Below are positions 6,198 through 57,870 of a stretch of 64,000 nt of DNA, piece by piece. The stretch is from contig JABVCE010000022.1 of assembly GCA_014905635.1 (NCBI GenBank), positions 62,001 to 126,000 on the forward strand. Reading direction: 5' to 3'. Source of the DNA: Scenedesmus sp. PABB004 (lineage: Eukaryota). The position numbers and the translations under genes were made by a program. Below the pieces are notes generated by a model. That model was not told the origin of the DNA and ran no database searches. It worked only from the letters and a program-made list of their open reading frames with translations. Each line of letters opens with the position of its first letter. Position 1 is the stretch's first letter.

Positions 6198-6485
6198 CAG
6201 GTGCGCCGGCAGCGGCTCGCCCGGGTGCTGCGGGCGCGCGGCGCGCGGCGCGGCGCGGCAGGGCTCGGCGCCGACCGCCGGCGGCAGCGGCGTGGCCGCC
6301 GCGCGCGCGCGCAGGGCGCAGCTCACGCTGGCGGCGTAGGCATCGGCCAGCTTGGGCTTGAGGACGCAGTACCACCGCAGGGACACGGCCTCCACGGTCC
6401 TGTCGCGGCGGCGAGGGTGAGGCGGCAGGGTCGAGGGCAGCGTGTTGACAGCAGCCGCGGGCGCAAGAAGCTGCGGGGCGCGAGC

Positions 6486-6517
<32 letters not shown>

Positions 6518-7043
6518 CACCTGTCGGCCAGGCCGGGCGGCAGGCCCCTGCGCGCGAGCGCGGCCGGGCTCATGGACGAGCCAGCGCCGTACTGCTGCTC
6601 CGCCAGGCCCTCGACCTCGGCGTCGTCCTGCGGGCGCGGCCGGCGGGCATGCGCGGTGACGGCAGCGGTGTCGGCGGCACGCCGCTGCGGCGGCGGGGTG
6701 CGCAGCCGCAGCGGCGGCGGCGCGCCCACCTCCTCCGTCCAGGGGGCGTTGCTGCGGTCCTCCAGGTGCGGCGGCAGCGGCTCGCCCGGGTGCTGCGGGC
6801 GCGCGGCGCGCGGCGCGGCGCGGCAGGGCTCGGCGCCGACCGCCCGCGGCAGCGGCGTGGCCGCCGCGCGCGCGCGCAGGGCGCAGCTCACGCTGGCGGC
6901 GTAGGCATCGGCCAGCTTGGGCTTGAGGACGCAGTACCAGCGTGAGGACACAGCCGCCTCGGTCCTGTCGCGGCGGCGAGGGTGAGGCGGCAGGGCAGCG
7001 TGTTGACAGCAGCCGCGGGCGCAAGAAGCTGCGGGGCGCGAGC

Positions 7044-7078
<35 letters not shown>

Positions 7079-7603
7079 CACCTGTCGGCCAGGCCGGGCG
7101 GCAGGCCCCTGCGCGCGAGCGCGGCCGGGCTCATGGACGAGCCGGTGCCGTACTGCTGCTCCGCCAGGCCCTCGACCTCGGCGTCGTCCTGCGGGCGCGG
7201 CCGGCGGGCATGCGCGGTGACGGCAGCGGTGTCGGCGGCACGCCGCTGCGGCGGCGGGCTGCGCAGCCGCAGCGGCGGCGGCGCGCCCACCTCCTCCGTC
7301 CAGGGGGCGTTGCTGCGGTCCTCCAGGTGCGGCGGCAGCGGCTCGCCCGGGTGCTGCGGGCGCGCGGCGCGCGGCGCGGCGCGGCAGGGCTCGGCGCCGA
7401 CCGCCGCGGCAGCGGCGTGGCCGCCGCGCGCGCGCGCAGGGTGCAGCTCACGCTGGCGGCGTAGGTATCGGCCAGCTTGGGCTTGAGGACGCAGTACCAC
7501 CGCAGGGACACAGCCGCCTCGGTCCTGTCGCGGCGGCGAGGGTGAGGCGGCAGGGCAGCGTGTTGACAGCAGCCGCGGGCGCAAGAAGCTGCGGGGCGCG
7601 AGC

Positions 7604-7635
<32 letters not shown>

Positions 7636-8272
7636 CACCTGTCGGCCAGGCCGGGCGGCAGGCCCCTGCGCGCGAGCGCGGCCGGGCTCATGGACGAGCC
7701 AGCGCCGTACTGCTGCTCCGCCAGGCCCTCGACCTCGGCGTCGTCCTGCGGGCGCGGCCGGCGGGCATGCGCGGTGACGGCAGCGGTGTCGGCGGCACGC
7801 CGCTGCGGCGGCGGGGTGCGCAGCCGCAGCGGCGGCGGCGCGCCCACCTCCTCCGTCCAGGGGGTGTTGCTGCGGTCCTCCAGGTGCGGCGGCAGCGGCT
7901 CGCCCGGGTGCTGCGGGCGCGCGGCGCGCGGCGCGGCGCGGCAGGGCTCGGCGCCGACCGCCCGCGGCAGCGGCGTGGCCGCCGCGCGCGCGCGCAGGGC
8001 GCAGCTCACGCTGGCGGCGTAGGTATCGGCCAGCTTGGGCTTGAGGACGCAGTACCACCGCAGGGACACAGCCGCCTCGGTCCTGTCGCGGCGGCGAGGG
8101 TGAGGCGGCAGGGTCGAGGGCAGCGTGTTGACAGCAGCCGCGGGCGCAAGAAGCTGCGGGGCGGGGCGCGAGCGCGGCGGCGGCGGCGGCGGCGCCCACC
8201 TGTCGGCCAGGCCGAGCGGCAGGCCCCTGCGCGCGAGCGCGGCCGGGCTCATGGACGAGCCGGCGCCGTACT
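6198..8272. repeat. Tandem array of a ~560-bp unit, about 3.7 copies, each with 3 exons and 3 introns
   Basis: Near-identical units begin at about 6198, 6762, 7323 and 7881. Length differences fall in (GGC)n runs and other predicted intron sequence. Confidence 0.95.
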
Positions 8273-10476
8273 GGCTCTCCGCCAGGTCCGCCACCAGGTC
8301 TTCCTCGTCCTGGTCCCAGCGAGCGTCGACACCCAGCTTGGGGAACGCCGCGCTGAACGTGGCCTCCAGCTCGCGGCGCTGCTGGGCGTCTGTGCGCGGA
8401 CGGCGACGAGAGCGCAGCGGGCTCAGCGGCGACGACGGGGCGGTGCCGCCCGACCCGCCCCGCAGCGCGCAGCACGCTGCGCGCAGCCCCGCGGCCCGGT
8501 GCTCACTCTCGGCCGTGAGTGGCATGAGCAGCTCCGTGGCGGCGCGCACGGCCTCGGGTCCGATGCTGGCCAGGTCGAACAGGCTCCCCAGGCCGGGCAG
8601 GTAGCTGGCCACGCTCGCGCTGCTCAGCAGCAGCGGGGGCAGGCCGCTGGCGAGGCGCAAGTCCACGCGCGTGGGCGCGCAGAGCGCGACGTAGCCGCGG
8701 CGGGCCGCGGGCATGTCCTGCCACAGGCCGACCGGCGCGCGCTGCGGGCGGATGCGGGTGAGGTAGGCCTTCAGCCCGTTGGTGTCCTCCGCGCAGAGCG
8801 CGGCCAGCTGGACACCAGCGGGAGGGCAGGGGCGCGGCCACGGCGGCGTCGGCGCTGCGGCGGCCGTACGCGCGGGCAGCACGCGCGTGCGCAGCGCGCC
8901 GCCGCCGCGGCTGGCACGGCCCCCGCCCCACCGCCCCACGCACCAGGCCCGCGGGGCCGCCCTTCTGCCCGCTCAGCCACTCGCCCACGCTGCACCAGTG
9001 GCTCCGCAGCCACGCGCCCGTGCCGGCCCAGATCGCGACAGCGCCGCGGCCTGGTGCGAAGGGAGAGAGATGTTGACGCCAGGGGGGGGGGGCTGCAGCG
9101 GGGCAGCAGCGCTGTAGCGGCGCCCGCGCGGCGCGCGCAGCAGCGCCCCCCGCCGCACCGCGCCAGGGGCAGTAGTCGCCGGGCGAGGTGATCGCGGTCA
9201 CCGCCCAGAACGCGGCGACCTGCATCGCGTTGACCGGGTCGGTCGCGAGGCGCTGCAGGGTCATCACCTCGCCGAGCTGCATGTTGACGAAGCACGCCGG
9301 CGACAGCAGCATCGACTTAAAGTCGTACCGCTGCAGCGGCGACTTGGCGCCGTCCCTGGCGGCAGACGGCGCGGCGCGGCGCGACGCGTGTGGGCGCGCG
9401 GCGCAGCGCCCAGCGCGCGCAGCCGCCAGCAGCGGCGCAGCGTGGCCGCGCGTGCTGCCGCGCGCCGCGGCGACGCACTTGGACCTGGGGTCGAGGCGCA
9501 CGACGACCGTGGCTGTCGTGAACACCTGCTCCGCCGCCGCCGCTGCCTCCATCTCGAGCGCGACCACCTGCGCCTCCGTGGCCGCCGGCAGCTGCGCCTG
9601 CAGCTGCGCGAGCGCCTGCCGCGCGGCAGCCAGGCGCCCGATCGGCTCCATGCACTGGGACCAGCGCGGGCAGTTGATGCTGCCCCGCCTGGACTCGGCC
9701 AGGGCAACGCCCAGGGCAACGCCCGCGTCGCGCACCGCTGACAGCGCTGCTGCCAGCTGCTCCGCAGCCGCGAGCACCGCGGCCTTTCCCTGCTCGAACT
9801 CCAGCGCGATCTTGAGCACGCGGAGCGTGAGGTCCTGCGTGAGCGTGATGAGCACATCGCCATCCTGCTCGACGAGCAGGCGCCGCCGCTGCCCGTCCTC
9901 GATGATGCTGCGCAGCGAGCGCCGCGGAGCGCCGGGCCGTCAGAGGGGGCCGGGCCGTCAGAGGGGGGCGGGTATCGTGACGGGCGGTCCGGGGGGAGGA
10001 GGCGAAAGGGTGCCCCGCGGCCGGCGGTGCAGCGCGGCCGCGCAGGCGCCTGCGCCGCACGCCGCGGCGGCGGCCGCTCACCAGCGGAGCACGAACTCCC
10101 AGTCGCCCTCGCCACCGTCGGCCACGGTGACGCTGATGGGGAAGGGCTCGGCGCCGTCCTCGAACACCTCGCGCAGCATGCCCGGGCGGTCCTCGCGGTC
10201 CTTGCGCGCATCGCCGCGCACGCGGCAGGAGGCGACGTTGGCCGCGGCCTCAGAGCGGGCCGCCCAGGGTTGCTTGTAGAAGGGCAGGAACGACTCCTGG
10301 GCCAGCTGGACGCGCGCGGCAGGGCGGAGGGCGAGCGTGAGGCGGGGGGCGCGCGTGCCGCGCGCGACGCGCGGCGGCGCGCGCAGCGGCGACGCGCCCG
10401 CCCGCCGGCGCACCTCAAACTTCATCTGCGACGGGCAGGCGCTGCGCAGGAAGCGCAGGAAGCGCTCCAGCTTGCC

Positions 10477-40021: not shown

Positions 40022-43000
40022 TCACCCCGCCGCGTGCGCGGCCGCGGGCGCCGCGTAGTCGTCGCCGCACTCGAGGTTGGCGCCGCCGCGGCGCAGGCCC
40101 ACGAGCTTGGCCCAGGTGTCGCACAGCTCGCCCATGAAGCCGACATACATGCAGAGCACGTACAGGTCCAGCACCGCAAAGCCGGGCAGCGGCGACTTGC
40201 AGGCCATGTATATGTGCGTGAGCGAGACCGCGGGGTCGCGGAAACGGTCGCCGTCCACGCCCGCGCCGTACCTGCGCGGCAGTGTCGGTCGCGCGGCGGC
40301 GGCGTCGGTTGGTCGGTCGGTCGACCGCGCGCGTGGGCGGGCGCGGCGTCTCGCCCGCGCGAGCGCGGCCGCGCCGCCCCGCGCCGCGGCCCCGCCGGGC
40401 CGCGTCTCTCCCGCGCGCGCGCCCCCGCTCCCGCGCGGCGGCGCACCGTATCTTGGAGAAGGCGAGGTTCTGGAAGGCGTAGAGGTTGTTGGCGCAGTGG
40501 AAGAGGTACAGGTTGCTCCAGCGCACCCAGTGCGCGATGCGGGGGAAGGCGTCGTCGCGGACGTTGAAGAAGGGGGCGAACCCAAACGCGAGCTCCGCCC
40601 GCCCCTCGCCCCGCAGCGCGCTGATGATGCCCTCGTACAGCAGCTTCAGCGTGCCTGCGCGCGCACGAGGGCGGCGGCGGCGCGGGCGGGTGGGCGGGGC
40701 GCGGGCGCGGGCGGCGCGGGCGGCGCAGGCGGGCGCGCGGGGCGAGCAGGGCGGGCGGCGCGGGCGGGCGGCGCGGGCGGGCGGCGGCGCGGGCGGGCGG
40801 TGCGGGCGGGCGGCGGCGCGCACCGGAGTGGGCGCTGCGCTTCATCCGGCAGATGCTCGACACGTAGCCGCGCTCGGTGCCGCCCTCCCAGAGCGGGTCG
40901 AGCAGGACAAAGCCCACGAGCTCGGGCTCGCGCGGCGCGTCGGGCTCCTCCTGCGCGTGCCGCTCCTCGTGGTGGATGATGCCCGGCGCCGCGCCGCCGG
41001 CGCCCACGCCGCCGGCGCTCGCGCTCGGGCCCGCGCCGCCGGCGCCCGCGCCCGCGCCTGCGCCCGCGCCCGCGTCGCTCGGGCGGGCGCCGCCGAAGCT
41101 CGGCATGCTGGTCAGGCTGGCCATGCCGGTGAGGCTGGGCATGCCGGACAGCAGCCCGCTGAGCGAGCCGGTGCTGCTGGCGGTCGTGAGCACGCTGTTG
41201 CTGCGGCTCAGCCCGCCCGAGTGCTGGGACGCGAGGCTGCGCGAGCTCTTGTTCCGCGGCGGCTTGGGCGGCTTGGCGTTGGCGGGCACGCCCTGCAGCA
41301 CCGGGTCGACCACCGCCGGCGGCGCCGACGACGCGGGGTGGTACTGCTCCGCGACGAACAGCCGCACGCCGTCCTGCAAGCCGCGGCGCGGCGGCGCGCG
41401 GCGGCGTCAGCGCGGCGGTGCGCGGCGGGACGCGCGGCCTGCCCCCGGGGACGCGCGGTCTGCCCGCGGGGACGCGCGGTCTGCCCGCGGGGCGGCGCGG
41501 GCGCGCGGGCGCGGCTGCCGCGTGCCTGCAGTCGGAGGTTGTCGTAGTCGACGTTGCGAATGAACACGCGCAGCTCGCGGTCGGCGACGGCCTTCTGCTG
41601 CAGCCAGTCGCCCGAGACGTCGTGCTGCAGCTTCCAGCGCAGCTCGGGCGTGAGCTCGTCGCCGCGCACCTCGCGCACGCGCACGCCGGCGTCGCGCGCG
41701 GCGCGCGCGGCGCTGCGCACGGTGCGCGTCTTGGCGGTGTATGTCCAGCTCTGGACCTGCGCGGCGCGGCGCGCACGCCGCGCACGCGTCAGCCCGGCGG
41801 CACGCACGCGCGACCGCTCGAGCCTCGCCGCGCCGCTGCCGCGCCGCCGCCGCGCCGCCGCCGCGCCGCGCCTGCAGCGTCGTCTCCGCGCCGACGTCGT
41901 TGATGCAGTAGCCCATGTCGTGCAGCAGGGCCGCGTAGTCGGCGCTCGCGTGGTAAAAGTAGGTGGTGGGAAACTCGGTGATGAAGGCCTCGGTCAGGCC
42001 GCGCCAGGCCGGCGCGGCGGCGAGCGGGTCGCCGATGACCGACACGACGACGCGGTTGTACATGTCGCCGACGATGAACGGCAGGCTGCCGACGCCGGGG
42101 ACGAAGAAGTGAATGAACTCCGGGTTGAACAGCTGGCGGCGGGCGGCGGCGCGGGCGGCGGGCGGGCGGGCGGCGGGCGGGGGCGGGCGGGGCGGGCGGC
42201 GCGAGCGGGGGCATGAGTGGGACGGAGGGAGGGACCGGGAGTGAGCGGGACGGAGGGACGGAGAGAGCGGGGTGGGAGCGAGAAAGCGAGCGAGGGCGCG
42301 CGCGCGCACCTGGCTGTTGGCGATGGCGTTGCGGCCGTACTGCCGCATGTAGGGCCCCACCAGCCGCCACGCGTCCGAGTCGTGGCCTGGCGGCGAGGCG
42401 CGCGGCGCGGGCGCGGCGCGGGGGCGGGGTTGGGCGCGCGCCGCGCTGGCCGCCGCCGCGCCGGGCGCGCCGCGGCAGCTGCTGGCCCTGCCGGGGCGCG
42501 GGCCAGGCCGCAGCCAGCCCGCCCCAGGCCGCCAGGCAGCTCCCCGGCCCGCGCCGCACACCCTTGGCGGGCTCGTTGTAGAGCAGGATGGGCTTGGCGC
42601 CCGCCCCCGAGGCCACCGCGCGCAGCATGATGCGCGGCGCCTTGGCCTCGCCGGCCTCGGCCTCGGCCTTGCCGTCGGCGGGCGGCGTGTCCGGGTCCGC
42701 GCCCGCCGGCGCCGCAGCCGCTGCTGCGTCGCCGCCGGCTCCGTCCGGCGCTGCCGCTGCCTCGTCGCCGCGCGGCGCAGCTGTGGGGCCGGCGTCCACC
42801 AGCTTGACGCGCGCCCCACGTCCCGAGGCGGCCTTGGCGATGGCCGGCGGCGTCCAGACACGGCGCTGCAGCCAGCCGACCGTGGCCAGCAGCTCCAGCA
42901 CCAGCCAGAAGCCCGTGCCCACCAGCACCTGCATCGCCTTCCACCCGACCGCCAGAGCCACCGCCTGCAGTGCTGCCACCACCCGCGCGCCGCGCGCGGG

Positions 43001-43039
43001 CGGCGGCGCGCCAGGCGCGCCTGGCGCCGGGGCGGGCAT
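40022..43039 (-). CDS. Free-standing DUF2156 / MprF C-terminal-like (aminoacyl-tRNA-dependent transferase) protein with an N-terminal membrane anchor
   Basis: The spliced product has VIGDPLA, GYCINDVGAETTL, RTVRSAARAARDAGVRVREV, DWLQQKAVADRELRVF, VRLFVAE, LVGFVLLDPLW, CRMKRSAHS|GTLKLLYEGIISALRGEGRAELAFGFAPF and LYAFQNLAFSKIR|YG, in the order expected for the dual-GNAT DUF2156 domain. About 7 introns. Confidence 0.8.
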
Positions 43040-43602: not shown

Positions 43603-46243
43603 TCAGCGGCAGGCTGGCGGCGCGGCCGCGCGCCGCGTGGGCACCAGCCACATGCCCTGCGCGACGCGCAGCTCCAGCGCCGCGACCGTCTGCGCCAGCA
43701 CGCCCGCGGGGCCGCCCATGCGCGGCGCGAGGCGCCATGAGAAGCAGGAGAGCAGCAGCGCCATCAGCACCTGCGGTCGCGGAGCAGCGCGGGGAGCTCA
43801 GCGTGCGAGCGCGCGCGCACGCGCGGGCCGCCGCCGCCGCCGCGCTCCACACCTTGCACTGCACGAGCGCGAGGTGCTGCGCGACGCAGGCCTTGGGCCC
43901 GATCCCAAACGGCACGAACCGCGCCGCGCCGCTGCCCGGGTGCGTCGCGTAGGTCGGGTCGTCGAGCCAGCGCCGCGGGTCAAACTGCGGCACGGCGCGT
44001 GCGGGCAGCGGGTCGTAGGTCGGCGGGGAGGTTGCGGGCCGGCGCGGCCGCACGCTCGCCGCGGCCGCCGGCCCGCGCGCGGCCTGGTGGCGGCACCTTG
44101 TGGGGCTCCTCCCAGTTGCCGCTGAACATTAGGATGGAGTAAAGGCAAGGGAAAACGATCACGCCGGCCGGCAGCCGGTGCGGGCCGAGCTGCGTGACGC
44201 GCTCCGTCATGCTGCGGCGCGGCCGCGGTCGCGGGCGGCGGGCGTCGCCGGGGCTGCGCGCGGCCGGCGCGGCGCGCGGCGCGCGCGGCAGGCGGCCGGC
44301 GCGGCGAGGCGCGGCGGCGCGCGTGCCGCTGCCTCACCGCGGCGTGGCGGCGACGCCGGCGGGGAACATTCGCATCGCCTCGCTGAGCACCGCGCTGCAG
44401 AATGGCAGCTGGCGCAGAAGGTCCATGTGCAGCGCTGCCGCGGCGGCGGCCGGGTCGCCGTCGCAGGGCAGCCCCGCCGCGCGCAGCTCCGCCACGCAGC
44501 CCGCCTCGGCCTCTGGGTGCTGCGTGAGCAGGTACCTGCGGCGGCGCGGCGCGTACACGCGCGGGTTTTGAGCGGGGCGTGCACGTGCATGCGCGGCGGC
44601 GCGCCGCCCCACGGGCCCGGCGCCAGCGCGCAGCGCGCCGCGCCGCGCTCACAGCGTCCACGCCAGCGTCCAGGGCACCGACTCCTGGCCCACGATCTGC
44701 AGGAATGCCTCCGCCTGCAGCGCCGGCGCGCTCAGCGGCGCGCCCGTGGCGGGGTCTGTCACGCGCGCGAGGCAGGCGGCGAGTGACACGTCGCCCGGCG
44801 CGGCGGGGCGCGCCGCCGCGACGTGCGCCGCGATCGCCGCCGTCACGGCCATGAGCTGGCGGCGCTGCGCGTGGAAGCGCCGCGCCTCCTGCGCGCACGC
44901 GGCGGGGCACGGGGCGGGCCGTTGCTGGCGCACGCGGGCGGGGGCGTTGCTGGCGCGCGCGGGCGGGCGCGGCCGGCCGGCCGGCGCACGCGCTGCGCCG
45001 CCGCCGCTCCGCCGCGCCGCCGCGCCGCCGCGCCGCCCGCACCCGGCAGAGCCCCGGGAGCGCGAGGTATGCCCAGCGCTTCCAGGGGCGCGTGACAAAG
45101 GTGTTGGTGATCGCCACGAGCGACGCGGCGGCCTCGGCGACCGCGGCGGCGTCGCCGAGCGCGGCGCGCGGCATGCGCAGGAAGCCCTCTGCCAGCAGGT
45201 TGATGGTGGCAGCAAAGATCTCCTCGTCGATCAGCACCTCCCCCTCGCCCGCTGGCTGCTGCTGCTGCCCCGGGCGCTGCTGCTGCGGCCCCGGGACGTG
45301 CAGCGACGCGCCGCTCGCGATGCGCCCGCACACATCGGCGTAGCAGCGCACGATGGCCGGGAACACCTCCCTGCGAGGCAGGCGCGGCAGCGCAGGGAGC
45401 CACTGGCGCGCCGCCCTCGCGACGGCGGCGCGGGGCCAGCCGAGCGCGGCCGTCCCGCGCTGTGGCCGCGGGCGCCCGCCGCACCTGACCGCGCTGAGCG
45501 CGTACGCCGGCGCGATGGCGCGCCGCAGCGCCCGCCAGCGCTCCTCGTTCTGCTCGGTCAGGATCGCGCTGCAGCCGCGCTGCCCGTGCGCCTGCGGCGC
45601 GGCGGCGGCGCGGGCGACGCGGGCGGCCGCGGCGTCGCGCCGCCGCCCGCCTGCACCGCGCGGCGCCGCGCGGCGCCGCCGCACACGCGTGCGCGCGCGC
45701 TCACCGAGTCGAACAGCGTGTACTCGGGCGTGCGGCGCGCGCACTCGTTTGGGCCCTTTGCGAGCACCTGCGCCGCGAGGCCGGGGTCTGCCACGAGCAC
45801 GAGGTCCCGGTGTAGGATGCGGATGCGCACGAGCGGCCCGAGCGCCTCGTGCCAGGCCAGGAACTGCTCGTGGCCGTTGGCGAGGTGCAGGGCCATCTGC
45901 AGCACGTGGCCGAGCACCGGGATGCCCCAGGGGCTCGGGACGCGCAGCAGGTCGAGCGTCGTCCAGCGCCGCACGACGAACCACCACGCCGCGAGCAACG
46001 CTAGTGCGGTGTAGGCGGCCAGAGCGGCCAGAGAAGTCGGAGACGGGGAGTGTGCGCCGGGCTCCTGGCGGCGCGGCGGCAGCAGCTCGCGGGCAGCGGC
46101 TGCGGCGACGCCCGCGCGGTGGCGGCGCCGAGCGCGGCGCGCACCGCCTGGGACTGCGCTCCAGCTCCCACCGCGACGGCTGCCAGCACCGCCAGCAGCA
46201 CGGCAGCAGCAGCGCCCCTCGGCGCGCGCCGCGGCGCGGCCAT
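43603..46243 (-). CDS. Cytochrome P450
   Basis: Pro hinge VPSPWGIPVLGH, C-helix WRALRR, I-helix IVGQESVPWTL, ExxR (EAMRMFP), FDPRRW and heme loop FVPFGIGPKACVAQHLA. TGA at 43603. Confidence 0.92.
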
Positions 46244-46655: not shown

Positions 46656-48544
46656 ATGGCCGACCACCGCGCCCAGCTCTACGACGCGGTGGGCCAGATC
46701 TGGCTGGAGCTGTTCGGGGAGCACGTTCATGTCGGTGAGCGAGCTGCGGGCCGGCGAGCGGGCCCCAGCGCGCGGCGCGGGGGGCGCGCGCGCGCGATGG
46801 CATGCGCCCGCCTGGCGCCCGGCGCACGCGCCCGCCGGGGCACGCCGGCGCGGGTACGAGTGCGGCCATAATACAGCGTCCCAACGCGCCGGCGCCGGCG
46901 CCGCCCAACGCGCCGCAGCGTACTACCCCGACACGGCGACCAGGGCCAAGGCAACCTGGCAGGAGGCGCAGCTGGCGCACGTGGACGCGGTGCTGGAGTT
47001 TGCGGGCGTGAAGAAGGCCGCGAGGGTGCGCGCCTGACGCGGCGGCGCCAGCGGGTGGCGCGCGCGCCTGCGCCCGCAGCGTGCGCAGTCCGCGCAGTCC
47101 GCGCGCGCGAGCCCGCCGCCGCCCGCCGCCGCGGCCGGCAGCTGCTGGACCTGGGCTGCGGCTACGGCGGCACGGCGGTGCACGTGGCGCAGCGGCTCAA
47201 GTGCAAGGCGGTGGGCATCAACATCTCGCCCTTCCAGGCGCGGCGCGGCGGCGGCCACCGCGCGCGGCGCGGCGCGGCGCGGCGCGGCGCGCCGGCGGCC
47301 ACCGCGCGCGGCACGGCGCGCGGCACGGCGCGACGCGGCCGAGCCCAGGCCCCGCGCGCGTGCGACCGCGCCGGCCGCCGCCACGGCGTGCGCAGGTGCA
47401 GGCCGCGAACCGGCTGGCCGAGCGCTGCGGCTTCGGCCGCGACGAGGTGTGCTTTGTCGTCGGCGACGCGCTCGCGCCGGACCTGCCGGACGGGCGCTTT
47501 GACCTCGTGCTCTCGGTGGAGAGCGCGGCATACATGCCGGACAAGGAGTGAGCCGGGGTGGCAGCCGGGGTGGCAGCCGGGGTGGCAGGGGGAGCCTCGG
47601 CTCGGTTGCTGGCTGCTGGCCGCGGGCGGGCGGCTGGTTGCCGGCGGCTGGCGCGCGCGGCGCGGCGCGGCGCGGCACGGCGCGGCCGGCCCACGCCCCC
47701 CCCCCCCCCCCCCCCGCGCGCGCGCGCCGCAGGCGCTTCGTGGCCCAGCTGTCGCGCCTGTGCGCGCCGGGTGGGACGGTCGTGCTCGTTGACTTTTGCC
47801 GCCGCCCGGGCCCGGTCAGCGAGCCGCTGCGCGCGCGCCTGGCGCGCATGGACCGCATCTTTGCCACGCCCGGCAACTGGACGTCGGCGGAGGAGTACCA
47901 GCAGCTCATGGGTGAGAGAGCGCTGGATCGCTGGGCTGTGTGCCAGCTGGCGTGCTTGCCCACATGCCGGGGACCCCCCGGGCTGGGCCGAACAAGCAAC
48001 GCGCCCGCCGCGCCCGCCGCGCCGGCCGCGCCCGCCGCCGCGCCCGCCGCAGGCTCCAGCGGGCTGAGCGTCGTGCGCGACGGCAACTGGACGCGCCAGG
48101 TGTGCGGCTTCTGGAACGTGGGCATGTGGGCGCTGCTCACGCGCAACGCCAACCCCGGGCAGAGCTGGCTCTCCTGGTATGGCGAGTTCAGCCGCCGGGT
48201 GCGTCACGCGCCCGCCCGCCCGCCGGCCGCCGGCCGGCCGCCGCCGCCGCGCGCGCGCTCGCTGCCGCGCCAACGCCGCTCCGCCGTCGCGGCGCGGCCG
48301 CGCCCGCCCGGCCGCCCGCCCGCCGCCGCGCCGCCGACCGCGCCCCGCCCCCGGCCGCGCCCGCCGCCGCGCCCGCCCGCCCGCGCAGTGCGCGGTCTGC
48401 CTGTGGCTCTTCCTCGTGGGCGGGCGCGCGGTGCTGGGCATGGGCCTGGGCTACCTGCTGGGCAGCCAGAAGCGCGTCGTGCAGGGCGGCCTCGACAGCG
48501 GCGCGCTCGAGTACCACGTGATTGTGGCCAAGAAGCCCAACTGA
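46656..48544 (+). CDS. SAM-dependent methyltransferase, gamma-tocopherol methyltransferase-like but divergent
   Basis: WLELFGEHVHV|AYY, LLDLGCGYGG, GINISPFQ, GDALAPDLPDGRFDLVLSVESAAYMPDK and RLCAPGG..VDFCRR. No transit peptide. A hydrophobic stretch lies near the C-terminus. Confidence 0.85.
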
Positions 48545-51173: not shown

Positions 51174-52683
51174 ATGTTGCAGAAGAAGAGCTTCGTGAAG
51201 AAGACGAGGGGCGGCAAGGTCGTCAAGGTGGGCAGCCGGCGCCGGCGCTGGCGGCGCGGCCGCCGCTGCTGCCGCCGCCGCAGCTCTCACGCGGCGGCGC
51301 GCCGCCGGCGCCGCAGGTGGTGCGCGAGCACTACCTGCGCGACGACATATGGTGGGGGGGGGACGGCTCGCCCCGCCGCGCCGGCCGCCGCGCCGCGCCG
51401 GCGCCGGCCGACTGCTCACGCCACTCGCCGCGCAGGAGCGGCTCGCCGCTGGACCCGGGGTGCGACCCGTCGGCCCACAAGCTGTCCCCGGACGCCCCGC
51501 ACTACCTGGTTATCGACACCAACGTGGCCCTGCACCAGGCCAGCAGCGCAGCGCGGCGCGGAGCGCTGGCACACGCCGCGCCGCCCCCGGCGGCCACGCC
51601 GCGCGCCGAGCGAGCCCGCGCCGCGCCGCCGGCGCCGCCGCCGCCGCGCGCAGATGGACTTTCTGGAGCACCCGGCGGTGAACGACGTCATCGTGTGCCG
51701 CACGGTCGTGGAGGAGGTGCGGCGCCTGCAGCGGCGGCAGCGGCGGCAGCGGCGGGGTCGGCCGCGAGCGTCGGCGGCGACCGCAGCGCCGGCGCCGGCG
51801 GGCGCCGGCGGGCCTGAGACGCGCGCTCCGCAGGTGGAGCACCGCAACAGGGCGGGCGGGCAGCGGCTCAAGGCGCTGTGCCAGAGCGCGACCAAGCGGT
51901 TTTACGTGTTCAGCAATGAGCACCACAAGTGCGCGCCGCGGCGGCCGCGGCGGGCGCGGCGCTCGCGCCTGCGCGGGCGCGCGGCGGGTGCGGCCGCCGA
52001 GCCGCCGCGCCGCGGCGTGGCGTGGCGCAGGGACACGTACGTCAAGGAGGAGCCGGGGGAGAGCCCAAACGACCGCAACGACCGCGCGATCCGCGTGGCC
52101 GCCAAGTGGTGCGCCCGCGCTGCCCGCCGCGCCCGCGCCGCAGCGCCGCGCCTGCCGGCGCCGCGCTGCCCACCGCGCGAGCCGAGCGCCGCCGCCGCGC
52201 CGCCGCCGCGCCGCCGCCGCGCCGGGCCGCCGCGCCGCGCAGGTACGCGGAGCGTCTGCCCGGCATGCGCATCATACTGCTGACGAACGACGCCGGCAAC
52301 CTCGCGGCTGCGGCCGCGGCGGGCCTCGTCGGCATGTCCCTGCCCGCCTACGCGCGCTCGCGCGCGGCCGAGGCGCCGGAGCTGCAGGACCTCGTCGCGC
52401 GCCAGGCGCGCCGCGCCGCGCCGCGGGGCCGCGCGCGCGCCCAGCGCGCCGCTGCAGCCTCGCCCCTGCGCGCTCGCACCTCACCTCGCCTCTCTCACCG
52501 CCGCCGCCGCCGCGCCGCGCCGCCAGGAGTTTATGGACGATGACGAGGCGGCCCTGGCGGCGGAGGGCGGCGCGGCGCCGGCCGGCGCCGACGGCGCGCG
52601 CGGCGGGCCGGCCGGCCCCGGCCCCGGCAGCAGCCGCGCGGCCGCGGCGCTCGCGGCGGCGGTCGGCGCGGCCGGCGGCAAGC

Positions 52684-52714
<31 letters not shown>

Positions 52715-55700
52715 GCCGCGCGGCGCGAAGCGCGCGCGCGTGTATGAGCAGCACCGCCCGATGAGCGACGTGGCCGCGGGCATCGCGTCGGGGCGGTACC
52801 ACCAGGGCGCGCTGCGCGTCAGCCGGTTCAGCCCGTTTGAGGGCTGGGTCGCGAGCGAGGCGGTGGGCCAGGACATCATGATCACCGGCCGCTCCGACAT
52901 GAACCGCGCCATGGACGGTGCGGCGCGGCGGCAGGGAGAGGGCGGAGAGGGCGGGCGGGCACGGGGAACGGCGGCGCGGCGGCGTGGTGGCAAGTGCTGC
53001 TGCTGCGGGCGCGCCGGGCGCGCGGAGCGGCGGCGGCCGGGGCCGGGGCCCCCGCGGGCGCCGGCTGAACGCGCGCCGCGCGCCGGCCGCCGCGCAGGCG
53101 ACGTCGTGGCGGTGGAGCTGCTGCCCGAGGCGCAGTGGCGCGCGCCCAGCAGGACGCTGCCGGGCGCCGGCGCGAGCGGCGCCGGCGGCGCCGCGGCGCC
53201 GGACAGCCCCGGCGGCGAGGAGGCGGGCGACGAGGCAGAGCTGGCGCCGGAGATTTTCCAGGTGGGCAGCGCTGCGCTGCGGGCCCGCTCGGCCGCGGCG
53301 CGGCCGCCGGCGCGCGGCGGCGGCCGAGGCGCCGCGCACCGCACCGCCGCCGCAGGTGGGCGGCGACACCGACCTGGAGGGCCCCGTGCCGGCCGCGGGC
53401 GCGGCCGGCGCAGACGGGCGGCGGCCCACGGGGCGCGTCGTGGGCATCATCCGGCGCAACTGGCGCAGCAGGTGCGGCGCGCCGCCGCGCCCCGCACGCG
53501 GCTGCGGCGGCCGGCGCACGCGCGCTGAAAGACCGCCGAGGCCTGCACGCCGCACGCCGCACGCCGCGCCCGCCGCGGGCCAGGGGTTACTGCGGGAGCC
53601 TCAAGCCGCAGGACCTCGGCCCCGGCAGCTCCACGCAGGCGCTGCTGTTTGTGCCGGTCGACCGGCGCTACCCGATGATTCGGTGAGGCCAGAGGGTTTA
53701 GGGGTCAGGGTCTGACAGGGCACAGGGCACAGGGCACTGCCAGGGCTTAGGGTTTTAGGAGGCGGTGGCCCCGCTGCCTCCTCGCTGCGGGCCGGTCCGC
53801 CCCTCGGCGCGCGCGGCGCGCGCGCGCTCGCCCCCGCCAGCCGGGGCCGGCGCCCAGCCCGCCCTGCGCCGCGCGCGCGCGCGCGCGCGCGCGCGCAGCA
53901 TCCACACGCGCCAGGGCGCTGCGCTCATGGACAAGCGGCTCGTGGTCGCCATCGACGGCTGGGACACGGACAGCATGTACCCGGCGGGGCACTACGTGCG
54001 CACGCTCGGCCTCATCGGCGACCGCGACGTCGAGACGGTGCGTTGGGTTAGGCGTGGCGGCCGCAGCCGCGGCGCCGGGCATGGGCCCCTCCCCGCCTCG
54101 CCGGCGGCGCCGCTGGCGCGCCGCGCGCGGCTCCAGCACGCCCGGTGTGGCGGTGTGTTGCACCCTGTGACTTGACCAACCCTGAACAATCCTGAACCCC
54201 CACCACCACCCCCAGGACGTGCTGCTGATAGAGAACGACATCAACACCGCGCCCTTCAGCCCCGCGGTGCACGAGTGCGTGCCGCCGCTGCCCTGGGCGG
54301 TGACCGAGGCCGACGTCGCGGGTGCGCGCCGCCCGCCGCCGCCGCCGCCGCGCGGGAGGGGAGGGGCGGGCACCTGCGCACGGGCGCGCCCGGCGGCGCC
54401 GGCCTCTGGCCCGCGGGCGCGGCGCCGCCGTCGGCCGGCGGCGCTCTGGGTTCACGCGCGCGTGTGCCCGCCTCCCGGCGCAGACCCCAACCGCGAGGAC
54501 CTGCGGCACCTGTGCGTGTGCAGCGTGGACCCGCCGGGCTGCATGGACATCGATGACGCGCTGCACGTGCGGTGCGTGCCGCGGCGCGCCGCCGCCGCCG
54601 CTGCGGCGCCCCGTGGCGCGGGAGGGCCCCCGGTGCCGCCGCGCGCCCGCGCGCCCGCGCGCCCACGCGCGCGCCGCCGCCGCGCCCTCTGCTCGGCACA
54701 GCGAGCTGGCCAACGGCAACCTGGAGGTCGGCGTGCACATCGCCGATGTCACGCACTTCCTCGCCCCCGGCACGGCGATGGACGCCGAGGCGGCGTCGCG
54801 CGCGACGACGACGTACCTGGTGCAGCGCCGCATCGACATGCTGCCCAAGCCCCTCACGGAGGACATCTGCAGCCTCAGGCGCGGACGCGGGCGAGCGGGC
54901 GGGCGCGGCCCGGGGCCGCGCGGCGCGGGCCGGGCGTCGCGGGGCCCGGCGCGGGGGCGGGGCGTGGGCGGGCCCCGGCGCGCGCGCGTGGGGCGGCGCC
55001 GGGGCGCGTGAGCGACGCCGCCGCGCGCCGCGCCGCCGGCTCGGGCGCCCGGCGCGCGCAGGGGCGGCGTGGAGCGGCTCGCGTTCAGCGCGCTGTGGGA
55101 GATGACGCGCGGCGCGGAGGTGGTGAGCGTGCGGTTCACCAAGTCGGTCATCGCCAGCCGCGCGGCGCTCACGTACGCGGAGGCACAGGCGCGCATCGAC
55201 GACGAGCGGCTCACAGACGACGTCACAAAGGGTGCGGCGGACGGGCGGCGCCGCCGCCGCCGCCGCCGCAGCGCCCGGCCGCGCGCGGCGCGGCGCGCTC
55301 GCTACCAACGCCCGTGCCCCCGCCGACGCCGCGCGTGCGCGTGCCAGGCCTGCGGCACCTGCTGGCGCTGTCCAAGCTGCTCAAGCAGCGCCGCCTCGAC
55401 GCGGGCGCGCTCAGCCTCGCGTCGCCGGAGGTCAAGTTCAAGATTGACACCGAGACGCACAACCCGCTCGACGTCGGCATGTACCAGGCGCGGCCCGCGG
55501 CGGCGAGGGCTCAGGGCTCAGGGCTCAGGGCTCAGGGCTCAGGGCTCAGGGCTCAGGGCTCAGGGCTCAGGGCTCGGGGGATCAGGGCTCAGGGCTCGGG
55601 GCTCGGGGTCCACTCAAGCTCGCGCCGCTGCAGCGCTGCCCCCTGCGCGGCGCGGCGGTGCTCTCGCCGCTGAGCACAAAAGATCGCCGCCTCTGGTGCC

Positions 55701-57396
55701 TCCCGCCCTGCTGCCGACGCGCGCAGACGCTGGAAACCAACAGCATGGTGGAGGAGCTGATGCTGCTCGCCAACGTGGCCGTCGCGACCGCCATCACGGC
55801 GCGCTTCCCCTCCTGCAGCCTGCTGCGCCGCCACCAGACGCCGGGTGCGCGCGCGGCGCGGCGCCGCGCGCTGGCGTGCGGCTGTGCGTCCTCCCGCCCC
55901 GCGCCGCTGCCGCCGCCTGCGCCCCGCAAAGACGCCTCCCCGCGCCGCCCGCCGCCCGCCGCGCGCCGCGCCTCGCCGCCGCCGCCGCAGCGCCGCGCCA
56001 GTTTGAGCCGCTGCTCGCGGCCGCGGGGTGCGCGGGGTTTGCGCTCGACGTGAGCAGCAGCAAGGCGCTCGCGGGCAGCCTCGACGCCGCGGTGCGCCCC
56101 GACGACGCCTACTTCAACAAGCTCGTGCGCATCATGGCCACGCGGTGCGCGGGCGGGGCGCCAGGGCGCAGGGTTCAGCGCCGAGGGCGGGCTGCTCGGC
56201 GCTCCGGCGCCACCTCGCCGAGCCCCTCCACGCCGCCCGCCCCGCGCCCGCCCTCCCCCGCCCACCCCCGCCCGCCCGCCCTGCGCCCGCTCGCGTCTGC
56301 CCGGCACCCCGCGCGCGTGCGGCGCAGGTGCATGACGCAGGCGCAGTACTTTGGCAGCGGCGAGGTGGGCGCGCCCGAGTACCACCACTACGGCCTCGCC
56401 TCGCCCATCTACACGCACTTCACCTCGCCCATCCGCAGGCGCGCGCGTGTGGTGTGTGCGTGCGCGTGTGTGCGTGCGCGTGTGTGCGTGCGCGTGTGGC
56501 GCGGGCGTGCGTGTGTGTGGTGTGGGTGTGTGGTGTGGGTGGGTGGGTGTGGGCCTTGGGTGTGGTCTGCGCGGGGCGGCGGCGCGGCGGCGGCACGTGG
56601 TGCCACGTGGCGCGGCGCGGCGCGCAGGTACGCGGACGTCGTGGTGCACCGGCTGCTCGCGGCGACGCTCGGCATCGCGCCGCTGCCCGACGCGGTGCGC
56701 GACAGCGACGCGCTGCACGACTGCGCGGGCAACCTCAACACGCGGCACAGGCGCGGACGGGACGCGCCCGGCGCGCAGAGCCGGCGCGCGGCACAGCCCC
56801 CGGGGCACAGGGGCCCCGCCGCCGCCGCCAGGCTCGCTGACCGGCGCGCCGCCGCCACCGCCGCCGCCGCCGTTTCTTGTTCCCCGCGGCCGCCGCGCGC
56901 GCGCGGCCTTGCAGGAACGCGCAGATGGCGGGCCGCGCGAGCGTGGAGCTGCACACGCTCATCTTCTTCAAGGACCGCCCCGTGCTCGCCGACGCGCGCG
57001 TCGTCAAGGCGCGCGCCGCAGGCTGCTGCTGCGCCCCGCCCCGCGCGCGCGCCGCCCGGCCGCGTGCTCTGGCCGCGCGGCTGGCGAGGTTGCCGCGCCA
57101 CGCCGCCGCAGGTCAAGGCCAACGGCCTGGTCGTGTTCGTGCCCAAGTTTGGCATCGAGGGCCCGGTCTATTTGGTGCCAAAGGACGCGGCGAACAACAG
57201 CAACCAGGCCCCGCCCGCATACGCGCTCGACGAGTCGGGCCAGGCGCTCGTGAGCGCCGACGGCGCGACGCGCTTCGCCGTGTTCGACAAGGTTGCCGTG
57301 CGCATCGAGGTCGAGGAGGGCGCCGCGCACCGGCGCAGCCTCGCGCTCGCGCTCGTGCCGCGCGACGAGCTGCCGCCGGGCGACGTCGTGGCGTGA
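51174..57396 (+). CDS. DIS3: Exosome catalytic subunit DIS3/RRP44 (PIN, CSD, RNB and S1 domains)
   Basis: [68 protein letters not shown] and [26 protein letters not shown]. About 22 introns. Confidence 0.97.
53692..53759 (+). repeat. Degenerate telomere-like heptamers in a DIS3 intron
   Basis: TTTAGGG, GTCAGGG, GACAGGG, CACAGGG x2, CTTAGGG and TTTTAGG. Confidence 0.6.
55506..55609 (+). repeat. (AGGGCTC)n heptamer array, a telomere-variant-like repeat, in a DIS3 intron
   Basis: Ten perfect copies at 55506-55575 followed by degenerate copies. Confidence 0.9.
56447..56565. repeat. GT-rich degenerate microsatellite in a DIS3 intron
   Basis: A (GT)/(GGT)/(GCGT) mosaic is directly visible. Confidence 0.8.
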
Positions 57397-57870
57397 GGCG
57401 CCGCGCGCCACGCGCACGCGCACGCGCAGCTCAGCAGGCGTAACGAGCCGAGGGCTCCCCCCGTGCCGGCGCCGCCGGACCTTGCGCTGCGCGCGGGGCT
57501 GGCTGTGCGCGGCGCTGCTGCTGCTCCCGGGCCGCCGCCGCCGCCGGCGCCGCCGCCGGGCCGGCGCGCCTCCCCCGGCGGCACGGCCGAGCTGTGGGAC
57601 TCCCCGCGCGTCAAACGGGGCGAGCTGGCGGACTGGGCGCGGCAGTGGTTTAGACCAACTTTCGGCGCCGCACCGCCGCGCGCTGGCGCCTCTTTGCGGC
57701 GCGGCAGCGCCTCCCACGTGTCATTGCGTCCTCTAGGGACCTTTCCTGTAGCTGGAGAGCCTGTAGCGCGCGCTCCCGACCGCGGGACGCCTCCGCGCGC
57801 TCCCGAGCGCCACCGCTCACCCGCTCGAGAGGCGCTCGACGACACCCCCGCGGTATCGCGGGACGACCTA

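Follow-up and report, generated by a model that had tools for sequence, protein, structure and literature searches.

The stretch analysed here, called the window in what follows, comprises 64,000 nucleotides of the green alga Scenedesmus sp. PABB004 (contig JABVCE010000022.1, positions 62,001 to 126,000 of the forward strand), and positions given below are those of the window. On its minus strand lies a split gene for a free-standing protein of the DUF2156 family, to which the synthase domain of the bacterial MprF proteins also belongs. The gene starts with an ATG at 43039 and stops with a TGA at 40024-40022. When frame-keeping GT/GC...AG borders are chosen, its coding sequence amounts to 2055 nucleotides (nt) and yields 684 amino acid residues (aa), with no internal stop. 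An earlier prediction made from the DNA letters had placed the gene at 40022..43039, which is exactly the coding sequence, and had counted about eight exons, a figure that the spliced model lowers to seven. The peptide blocks quoted in that prediction lie in stop-to-stop frames of this span. The elements of the gene are as follows.

40022..43039, minus strand: whole span of the coding sequence, 7 exons and 6 introns, 684 aa plus stop
43039-42562, minus strand: exon 1, with the start codon, the hydrophobic N-terminal helix and a linker rich in Ala, Gly and Pro; no Pfam match
42386-42310, minus strand: exon 2, beginning of GNAT fold I
42132-41872, minus strand: exon 3, GNAT fold I, the next intron being GC-AG; PF09924 profile positions 31-103, 21.7 bits
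41756-41526, minus strand: exon 4, basic inter-GNAT helix and beginning of GNAT fold II, the next intron again being GC-AG; PF09924 positions 115-174, 18.3 bits
41373-40824, minus strand: exon 5, strand RLFVAE, the entire insert, strand LVGFVLLD and conserved Arg525
40654-40447, minus strand: exon 6, core of GNAT fold II with conserved K600; PF09924 positions 224-284, 14.6 bits
40271-40022, minus strand: exon 7, last strands and helices of the protein, one of the helices hydrophobic (residues 633-651), stop codon
42561-42387, 42309-42133, 41871-41757, 41525-41374, 40823-40655 and 40446-40272, minus strand: introns 1 to 6

A spliced nuclear gene

The translation of exon 3 is 71-72% identical to three relatives (P0001-P0003), and a search with it located P0002, the 632-aa protein OEZ86_005718 of Tetradesmus obliquus. 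The spliced protein of the window aligns with this ortholog with 398 identities over 608 aligned columns (65%), and none of the six exon junctions carries a gap in the alignment. Conversely, tblastn of P0002 onto the window recovered exons 2-7 in order. Since the six introns restore one frame and the ortholog alignment runs seamlessly across the junctions, the view that the gene is nuclear and contains introns was borne out. The locus is thus a real nuclear gene, split by introns, and belongs to a green alga of chlorophycean type. A second copy within the 64-kb window was not found by tblastn of five relatives.

The introns measure 115-177 nt, with GT-AG borders in four of the six and GC-AG borders in the other two (introns 3 and 4). 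The G+C content is 78.9% for the window, 65-79% for the exons and 84-95% for the introns, and reaches 0.95 at third codon positions. The introns are therefore richer in G+C than the exons, and the composition is extreme for a eukaryote.

Architecture of the predicted protein

Matches to PF09924 (DUF2156/LPG_synthase_C) were obtained with three of the seven exon translations (exons 3, 4 and 6). They are collinear on the profile, each of them alone lying under the 27.5-bit cut-off. The Pfam pass on a complete protein, the structure model and the fold search were run on the ortholog P0002, which scores 74.2 bits against PF09924 at full length, the sole Pfam family that it matches. The family assignment of the original prediction was thus recovered both in the ortholog and, below threshold, in the exons of the window. 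Searching the sequences of the Protein Data Bank (PDB) with P0002 by phmmer aligned both of its halves with the Bacillus licheniformis L-PGS (4v36; E 4.3e-6).

An AlphaFold2 model of P0002, built from a 74-row alignment, predicts two tandem GNAT folds, with a predicted local distance difference test score (pLDDT) of at least 88 in each ten-residue block of residues 101-310 and 451-610. A Foldseek comparison of this model with the PDB gave 29 matches at E <=0.001. Ranks 1-17 are all aminoacyl-phosphatidylglycerol synthase (aaPGS)/MprF synthase domains, with E values from 7e-14 to 5e-7 (entries 4v36, 5vrv, 4v35, 4v34, 9goe, 6lv0, 7duw, 9j8q, 9j8s, 7f47 and 6lvf), and they are followed by the aminoacyl-tRNA-dependent peptide synthases Sbb17/Sba18 and then by FemX. 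For the stand-alone synthase-domain structures, template modelling scores normalised to the length of the target range from 0.72 to 0.81. It is because of this AlphaFold2 and Foldseek result on the ortholog that we regard the dual-GNAT fold proposed at the outset as confirmed.

Residue conservation was assessed in an 85-row alignment made of the window protein, the matches of at least 300 aa from the search of representatives described below, two alphaproteobacterial free-standing proteins, three MprF C-terminal domains and one VlmA-like protein. Twenty rows were left out, either as duplicates within a cluster or as truncated or shorter versions of retained rows. Thirty-eight columns are at least 75% conserved, and in 36 of them the window protein has the consensus residue, the two departures being Ala280 in place of Gly and Phe556 in place of Leu. 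Every conserved column common to the three MprF domains is kept, e.g., P221, G266, R286, W323, R525, G557, P560, Y591, K600 and Y623. R525 and K600 are thus among the residues shared with MprF that the predicted protein retains. Between the two folds lies a segment that may correspond to the basic helix of the known enzymes.

41655..41750, minus strand: positively charged helix candidate, residues 275-306, with 8 Lys/Arg and 4 Asp/Glu, including R286

The R286 column is Arg in 76 of the 84 filled rows. The segment aligns with MprF, the VlmA-like protein and the free-standing forms, and corresponds to helix 231-245 in the P0002 model. As PMC6103681 and PMC8913301 describe it, the basic inter-GNAT helix of aaPGS, FemX and ErgS is held to bind the acceptor arm of tRNA, and charge reversal in this helix abolishes the activity of ErgS.

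42869..42961, minus strand: hydrophobic N-terminal segment, putative single membrane anchor, residues 27-57, core 36-57

With a Kyte-Doolittle window of 19 residues, the N-terminal part of the protein gives one hydrophobic window (1.69 at residue 36), and the P0002 model has a helix at residues 2-41. Similar N-terminal segments occur in seven relatives (P0002, P0003, P0022, P0031, P0042, P0157 and P0007). None was detected at the same threshold in P0005 and P0006, and several members of the clade are N-terminally incomplete. The free-standing forms of 322-413 aa that were scanned have no hydrophobic window in their first 70 residues, the earliest being at residue 73 (P0152). The segment is followed by a linker, residues 63-150, in which 31 of the 88 residues are Ala. 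A second Kyte-Doolittle window (1.74 at residue 630) falls, in the P0002 model, on a well-packed C-terminal helix with a pLDDT of 88-98. According to PMC13534887, the MprF synthase domain ends in an analogous helix, which was formerly misread as transmembrane.

The exon scans and the hydropathy profile agree with the proposal that the DUF2156 protein is free-standing and has just one hydrophobic helix at its N-terminus. Neither an MprF flippase nor a fused aminoacyl-tRNA synthetase was expected. In the Pfam scan, no synthetase family was matched by P0002 or by the translation of any exon, and no flippase family by P0002 or by exon 1. Exon 1 has no Pfam match, and P0002 matches PF09924 only. 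The gap between the start codon and the nearest coding block of the upstream cytochrome P450 gene is only ~600 bp. The NCBIfam equivalog profile for MprF, NF033480, scores 52.4 bits against a cut-off of 600 bits, with its synthase part only.

40921..41346, minus strand: insert of 142 residues (359-500) in the hairpin of GNAT fold II, predicted to be disordered
41245..41322, minus strand: Pro/Lys-rich motif inside the insert, residues 367-392; KPPKPPR core in 6 of 10 aligned rows
41173..41214, minus strand: GLSRSNSVLT..SS motif with an RSxS site, residues 403-416; R-[ST]-x-S-[VI]-L core in 7 of 10 aligned rows

The original prediction had put some 130 Ser/Gly/Ala-rich residues between RLFVAE and LVGFVLLD. 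The composition of this insert was as stated, with Ala, Gly and Ser making up 68 of the residues, and its length was underestimated, the actual figure being 142. P0002 has a comparable insert of 148 residues. In the remaining 15 members of the 17-row clade to which both belong, it measures 0-58 residues, the two zeros being cut rows. The same hairpin has 4-7 residues in all 68 rows outside the clade, MprF included. The insert is therefore a clade-specific, expanding feature placed in a short hairpin of GNAT fold II. In the P0002 model, residues 337-440 have a pLDDT below 50 and are predicted to be disordered.

Both RSLAS and RSNS are present where they had been reported, and the insert is partly motif-bearing rather than of low complexity throughout. 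P0005 has neither of the two insert motifs, and two short rows stop before the RSxS motif. From the letters of these motifs, one may guess at phosphoregulation at RSxS and at kinase or adaptor sites in the insert. In the PDB, the insert weakly matched a Yorkie homolog (E 4.8), which was put down to chance.

Relatives, origin and genomic setting

With P0002 as the query, a search of 1.84 billion representatives that used no profile returned 588 proteins at E <=0.001, 271 at <=1e-10 and 31 at <=1e-30. Among the best 150 of the 588 matches, many are exon-sized fragments with 60-93% identity. The thirty clusters looked up yielded four organism names, one of them Sanguina aurantia (P0046, P0168). 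The other named relatives are a Tetradesmus obliquus paralogue, OEZ86_005320, UniRef A0A383VNA7 (P0068, P0170), Chromochloris zofingiensis Cz03g15180 (P0177) and a protein of a Nanoarchaeia metagenome-assembled genome (MAG; P0043). Word-index protein searches with full-length P0002 and with its residues 100-345 returned P0002 alone. Two metagenome scans, with P0002 and with alignment A3, gave no confirmed relatives. A bacterial donor was sought with P0018 as the query, and nothing was found; with P0024, 10 loci from Thermodesulfobacteriota or 'Deltaproteobacteria' MAGs were retrieved at 51-55% identity.

A quick tree of the 85 rows and a careful tree of 49 selected rows agree with each other. 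The latter was calculated with IQ-TREE under LG+C20, with fragments, duplicates and the long VlmA-like branch removed, and its supports are given below as ultrafast bootstrap/Shimodaira-Hasegawa-like approximate likelihood ratio test (SH-aLRT). The three MprF domains were set by choice as the outgroup that roots both trees, composition is skewed in many rows, and the rows include neither fungal ErdS nor fungal ErgS sequences.

In the 49-row tree, the window protein pairs with P0002 (100/100) inside a 13-row clade (100/100) that includes the Chromochloris protein, three of the 13 rows bearing an organism name. Together with another clade, of five rows, that comprises the Tetradesmus paralogue, Sanguina and a EukProt protein, this 13-row clade forms a group of 18 rows (96/80). 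Sister to the latter are P0018, P0024 and three Thermodesulfobacteriota MAG genes (L007, L011 and L013), and the resulting 23 rows (100/99) are nested among other free-standing proteins of ~340 aa, including plasmid genes of Aureimonas and Rhizobium. The 85-row tree likewise places the window protein with free-standing forms (24-row set, support 99), the VlmA-like row standing apart on a branch that is very long (2.95). The stem of the clade measures 0.9-1.07 changes per column, and in the domain columns that were kept, the window protein is 74-77% identical to P0002.

This topology would fit a single transfer of a free-standing DUF2156 gene out of a bacterium and its later duplication in green algae. 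Of the old horizontal transfer that had been postulated, the bacterial origin is consistent with the tree; the donor and the date of the transfer go beyond what it shows. In the ESM Atlas, the nearest feature clusters are Ascomycota free-standing DUF2156 proteins and 'protein ergS' (0.92), a similarity that we take as a lead only, as it is not a test of kinship.

The sister group consists of bacterial free-standing DUF2156 proteins of 345-366 aa (P0018, P0024, L007, L011 and L013). Like the algal protein, they are tandem-GNAT proteins devoid of flippase and synthetase. They are 28-31% identical to P0002 and differ in having no N-terminal hydrophobic helix or linker, and a hairpin of 4 residues where the alga has 142. 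In both of the Thermodesulfobacteriota MAG loci whose neighbours were inspected, the DUF2156 gene is preceded by genes for a K+ channel and an Na+/H+ exchanger, and it is followed on the opposite strand by a gene for a 492-aa protein with a GNAT acetyltransferase domain (L011 5099-6577; L013 5164-6642).

The MprF/aaPGS synthases (4v36, 4v34/4v35, 5vrv, 6lv0 and 7duw) belong to the same Pfam family, are the best matches among solved structures and have the basic helix in common with the algal protein, as well as the conserved Arg, Lys and Trp columns. In contrast, MprF has a multi-pass flippase domain where the algal protein has one helix. The algal protein is far below the NF033480 cut-off and clusters with free-standing forms in the 85-row tree, where MprF was set as the outgroup, and the sequence identity of these structures to P0002 in Foldseek is only 9-14%.

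Like the algal protein, the fungal enzymes ErgS and ErdS are eukaryotic DUF2156 enzymes of the intron era that are presumed to have come from bacteria. ErgS, the ergosteryl-glycine synthase, is also free-standing and has an N-terminal extension; it depends on a separate synthetase (PMC8913301). The original prediction had called the algal protein ErgS-like in layout. This holds for its free-standing nature and not for its ends, as the ErgS extensions carry no localisation signals in what PMC8913301 describes of them, whereas the algal protein has a putative hydrophobic anchor as well as a large internal insert. ErdS is a fusion of aspartyl-tRNA synthetase (AspRS) with DUF2156, and the algal gene is not an ErdS because it has no AspRS fusion. 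No ErdH-like alpha/beta-hydrolase is present among the neighbours of the gene, which are a P450 and a kinase.

The VlmA-type enzymes of Streptomyces are also free-standing, with a similar core length, and share most of the conserved columns. PMC6103681 describes them as soluble enzymes with small-molecule acceptors. The Streptomyces example is embedded in a cluster; in contrast, the algal gene codes for a putative anchor and has no biosynthetic cluster around it. On a plasmid of Streptomyces sp. NBC_01276 (L006 1-3978), a free-standing DUF2156 gene lies beside VlmB-like, flavin reductase and acyl-CoA-dehydrogenase-family genes in a valanimycin-type layout. Two metagenomic relatives are fusion proteins. 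In P0053 (751 aa), DUF2156 is joined to an alpha/beta hydrolase (Abhydrolase_1, 100.2 bits), which recalls the separate synthase and hydrolase of the fungal ErdS/ErdH pair, and in P0148 (638 aa) it is joined to an S-adenosylmethionine (SAM) methyltransferase (Methyltransf_25, 54.9 bits).

The other genes recognised around the locus are the following.

~46052-43630, minus strand: multi-exon cytochrome P450, directly upstream; N-terminal exon with PF00067 at 26.2 bits, haem-loop exon at 43826-43921
~46915-48541, plus strand: class-I SAM methyltransferase in several exons, with CMAS, Methyltransf_25 and Methyltransf_11 matches, divergent from the P450
37661-36666, minus strand: protein kinase, downstream; PF00069 at 128.7 and 84.3 bits in two exons
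34480-34076, minus strand: TrmO-like tRNA methyltransferase, downstream; two exons with 35.1 bits each

The PDB sequence search was non-specific as to the type of the P450, returning CYP51, plant and unrelated P450s at E 3e-4 to 1.5e-3. The P0148 fusion was considered as a link between DUF2156 and the methyltransferase of the window and was rejected, the two methyltransferase parts being unmatched at E <=0.01. In the list of open reading frames (ORFs), exon blocks at ~51400-57400 on the plus strand resemble, by their motifs, a PIN-plus-RNB exoribonuclease (Dis3/Rrp44-like). In the same list, three peptide blocks recur every 555-565 bases for four rounds at ~6300-8430 on the minus strand, suggesting a tandem repeat of ~0.56 kb.

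Proposed function and alternatives

The reading that we favour, with moderate confidence, is that this free-standing tandem-GNAT DUF2156 protein is a membrane-tethered, aminoacyl-tRNA-dependent lipid aminoacyl transferase. For this enzyme we infer tRNA dependence, a lipid acceptor, a membrane tether with its topology, and regulation. The single N-terminal hydrophobic helix would tie the enzyme to the membrane through the flexible Ala-rich linker. We propose this tether because the MprF synthase works poorly in cells without one: according to PMC8131360, the isolated synthase domain is active in detergent and poorly active in cells, since its lipid is then out of reach. The basic helix between the GNAT folds would bind the acceptor arm of a tRNA charged by a separate synthetase, and at the cleft between the folds the aminoacyl group would pass to a hydroxyl of a membrane lipid, a glycerolipid or a sterol, on the side of the membrane that contains tRNA. 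The disordered 142-residue insert with its conserved linear motifs would probably serve regulation or partner binding.

Several observations speak against this proposal. The Pfam pass, the model and the fold search describe a 65% identical stand-in rather than the window's own spliced protein, whose predicted splicing rests on homology in addition to splice motifs, with GC donors at two of the six introns. The hydrophobic segment holds a Lys and a Glu, and the confidence of the ortholog model there is 55-75. Among bacteria, the closest relatives, 345-366 aa long, are soluble and have no hydrophobic anchor; in the two loci examined, they stand beside genes for ion transporters and a GNAT protein instead of lipid genes. 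The family also holds enzymes with non-lipid acceptors, as illustrated by the VlmA-like gene and by Sbb17 and FemX among the fold matches. Finally, PMC8913301 holds that the specificity for amino acid and acceptor is not predictable from sequence.

In the main alternative, family and chemistry are the same and the acceptor is not a membrane lipid. As in VlmA-type and other stand-alone DUF2156-like enzymes, the amino acid might pass instead to a small metabolite, to a nucleic-acid base, or to a peptide or protein. The Streptomyces DUF2156 gene that stands beside VlmB-like, flavin reductase and acyl-CoA-dehydrogenase-family genes, the fact that the fold matches include FemX and the peptide synthases Sbb17/Sba18, and the closest bacterial relatives, with neither anchor nor lipid gene context, would all be accommodated by this alternative. 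We nevertheless judge it unlikely. The N-terminal hydrophobic helix is conserved in the clade, fold ranks 1-17 are lipid aminoacyl synthases, and the VlmA-like row lies outside, on a very long branch. In addition, the sole characterised eukaryotic members as presented in PMC7334510 and PMC8913301, ErdS and ErgS, act on a membrane sterol.

The protein might instead be an aaPGS of an organelle, plastid or mitochondrion, that lacks a flippase, its N-terminus serving as targeting signal or anchor, its aminoacyl-tRNA being organellar and its acceptor phosphatidylglycerol. Phosphatidylglycerol is the main phospholipid of thylakoids, the top sequence and fold matches are aminoacyl-phosphatidylglycerol synthases, and an Ala/Arg/Pro-rich N-terminus precedes the hydrophobic stretch. 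However, the protein falls outside the MprF group, both by its NF033480 score (52.4 of 600 bits) and by its place among free-standing forms in the 85-row tree, for which MprF was set as the outgroup, and its N-terminal sequence is poorly conserved with the ortholog. We thus consider an organellar aaPGS improbable.

Alternatively, the insert might disrupt GNAT fold II and leave a dead or re-purposed scaffold with a non-enzymatic role. The 142 residues do break a hairpin of the fold thought to bind the aminoacyl-tRNA, and the clade stem is long (0.9-1.07 changes per column). The preservation of 36 of the 38 conserved columns, all those shared with MprF included, the pLDDT above 90 of both strands that flank the insert in the P0002 model, and the 74-77% identity to the ortholog over the kept domain columns make such a loss of activity very improbable. 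Bacterial contamination or an assembly artefact, which the mainly bacterial distribution of the family and the very unusual G+C content of the window (78.9%) might bring to mind, can be dismissed as far as the sequence goes, as six GT/GC-AG introns restore a single frame, the best relatives are annotated Tetradesmus and Chromochloris proteins, and the neighbouring P450, protein kinase and methyltransferase genes are also split into exons.

Beyond the tethered lipid aminoacyl transferase that we favour for this locus, we tentatively suggest a broader scenario, which we hold to be possible rather than probable. Green algae may make tRNA-dependent aminoacylated membrane lipids by means of a DUF2156 gene acquired once from bacteria and then duplicated; among eukaryotes, lipids of this class have been demonstrated so far for fungal sterols only. 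One paralogue line would have gained the anchor and the motif-bearing disordered insert, putting lipid aminoacylation under the control of kinases or adaptors.

In the literature consulted, tRNA-dependent lipid aminoacylation in eukaryotes is represented by fungal ErdS and ErgS alone. Enzymes of the aaPGS type seem to be missing from other eukaryotes according to PMC8913301 and PMC6103681; the ErgS paper calls aaPGSs 'apparently absent in eukaryotes' apart from the fungal enzymes, and a 2017 review knew of no eukaryotic examples. In the library searched, we found no publication pairing DUF2156 with algae, although the supplement of PMC7334510, which covers DUF2156 hits across eukaryotes, may mention them. 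The domain call is not new, because databases already label relatives 'Phosphatidylglycerol lysyltransferase C-terminal domain-containing protein'. The novelty that our comparison of sequences suggests lies in a clade conserved in green algae whose architecture is its own, namely, a putative single anchor, a linker and a motif-bearing insert, together with the prospect of algal aminoacylated lipids.

The chemistry concerned has long been regarded as bacterial. If the proposal is correct, it extends to photosynthetic eukaryotes through a gene family of green algae that is spliced, conserved and to all appearances intact, and that comprises two or more paralogue lines. Access to the substrate would then be provided by a single tether in place of the flippase domain that positions the MprF synthase, and the large insert with its conserved linear motifs suggests regulation in the manner of eukaryotes. 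The family also offers a concrete gene for study in Tetradesmus or Chromochloris.

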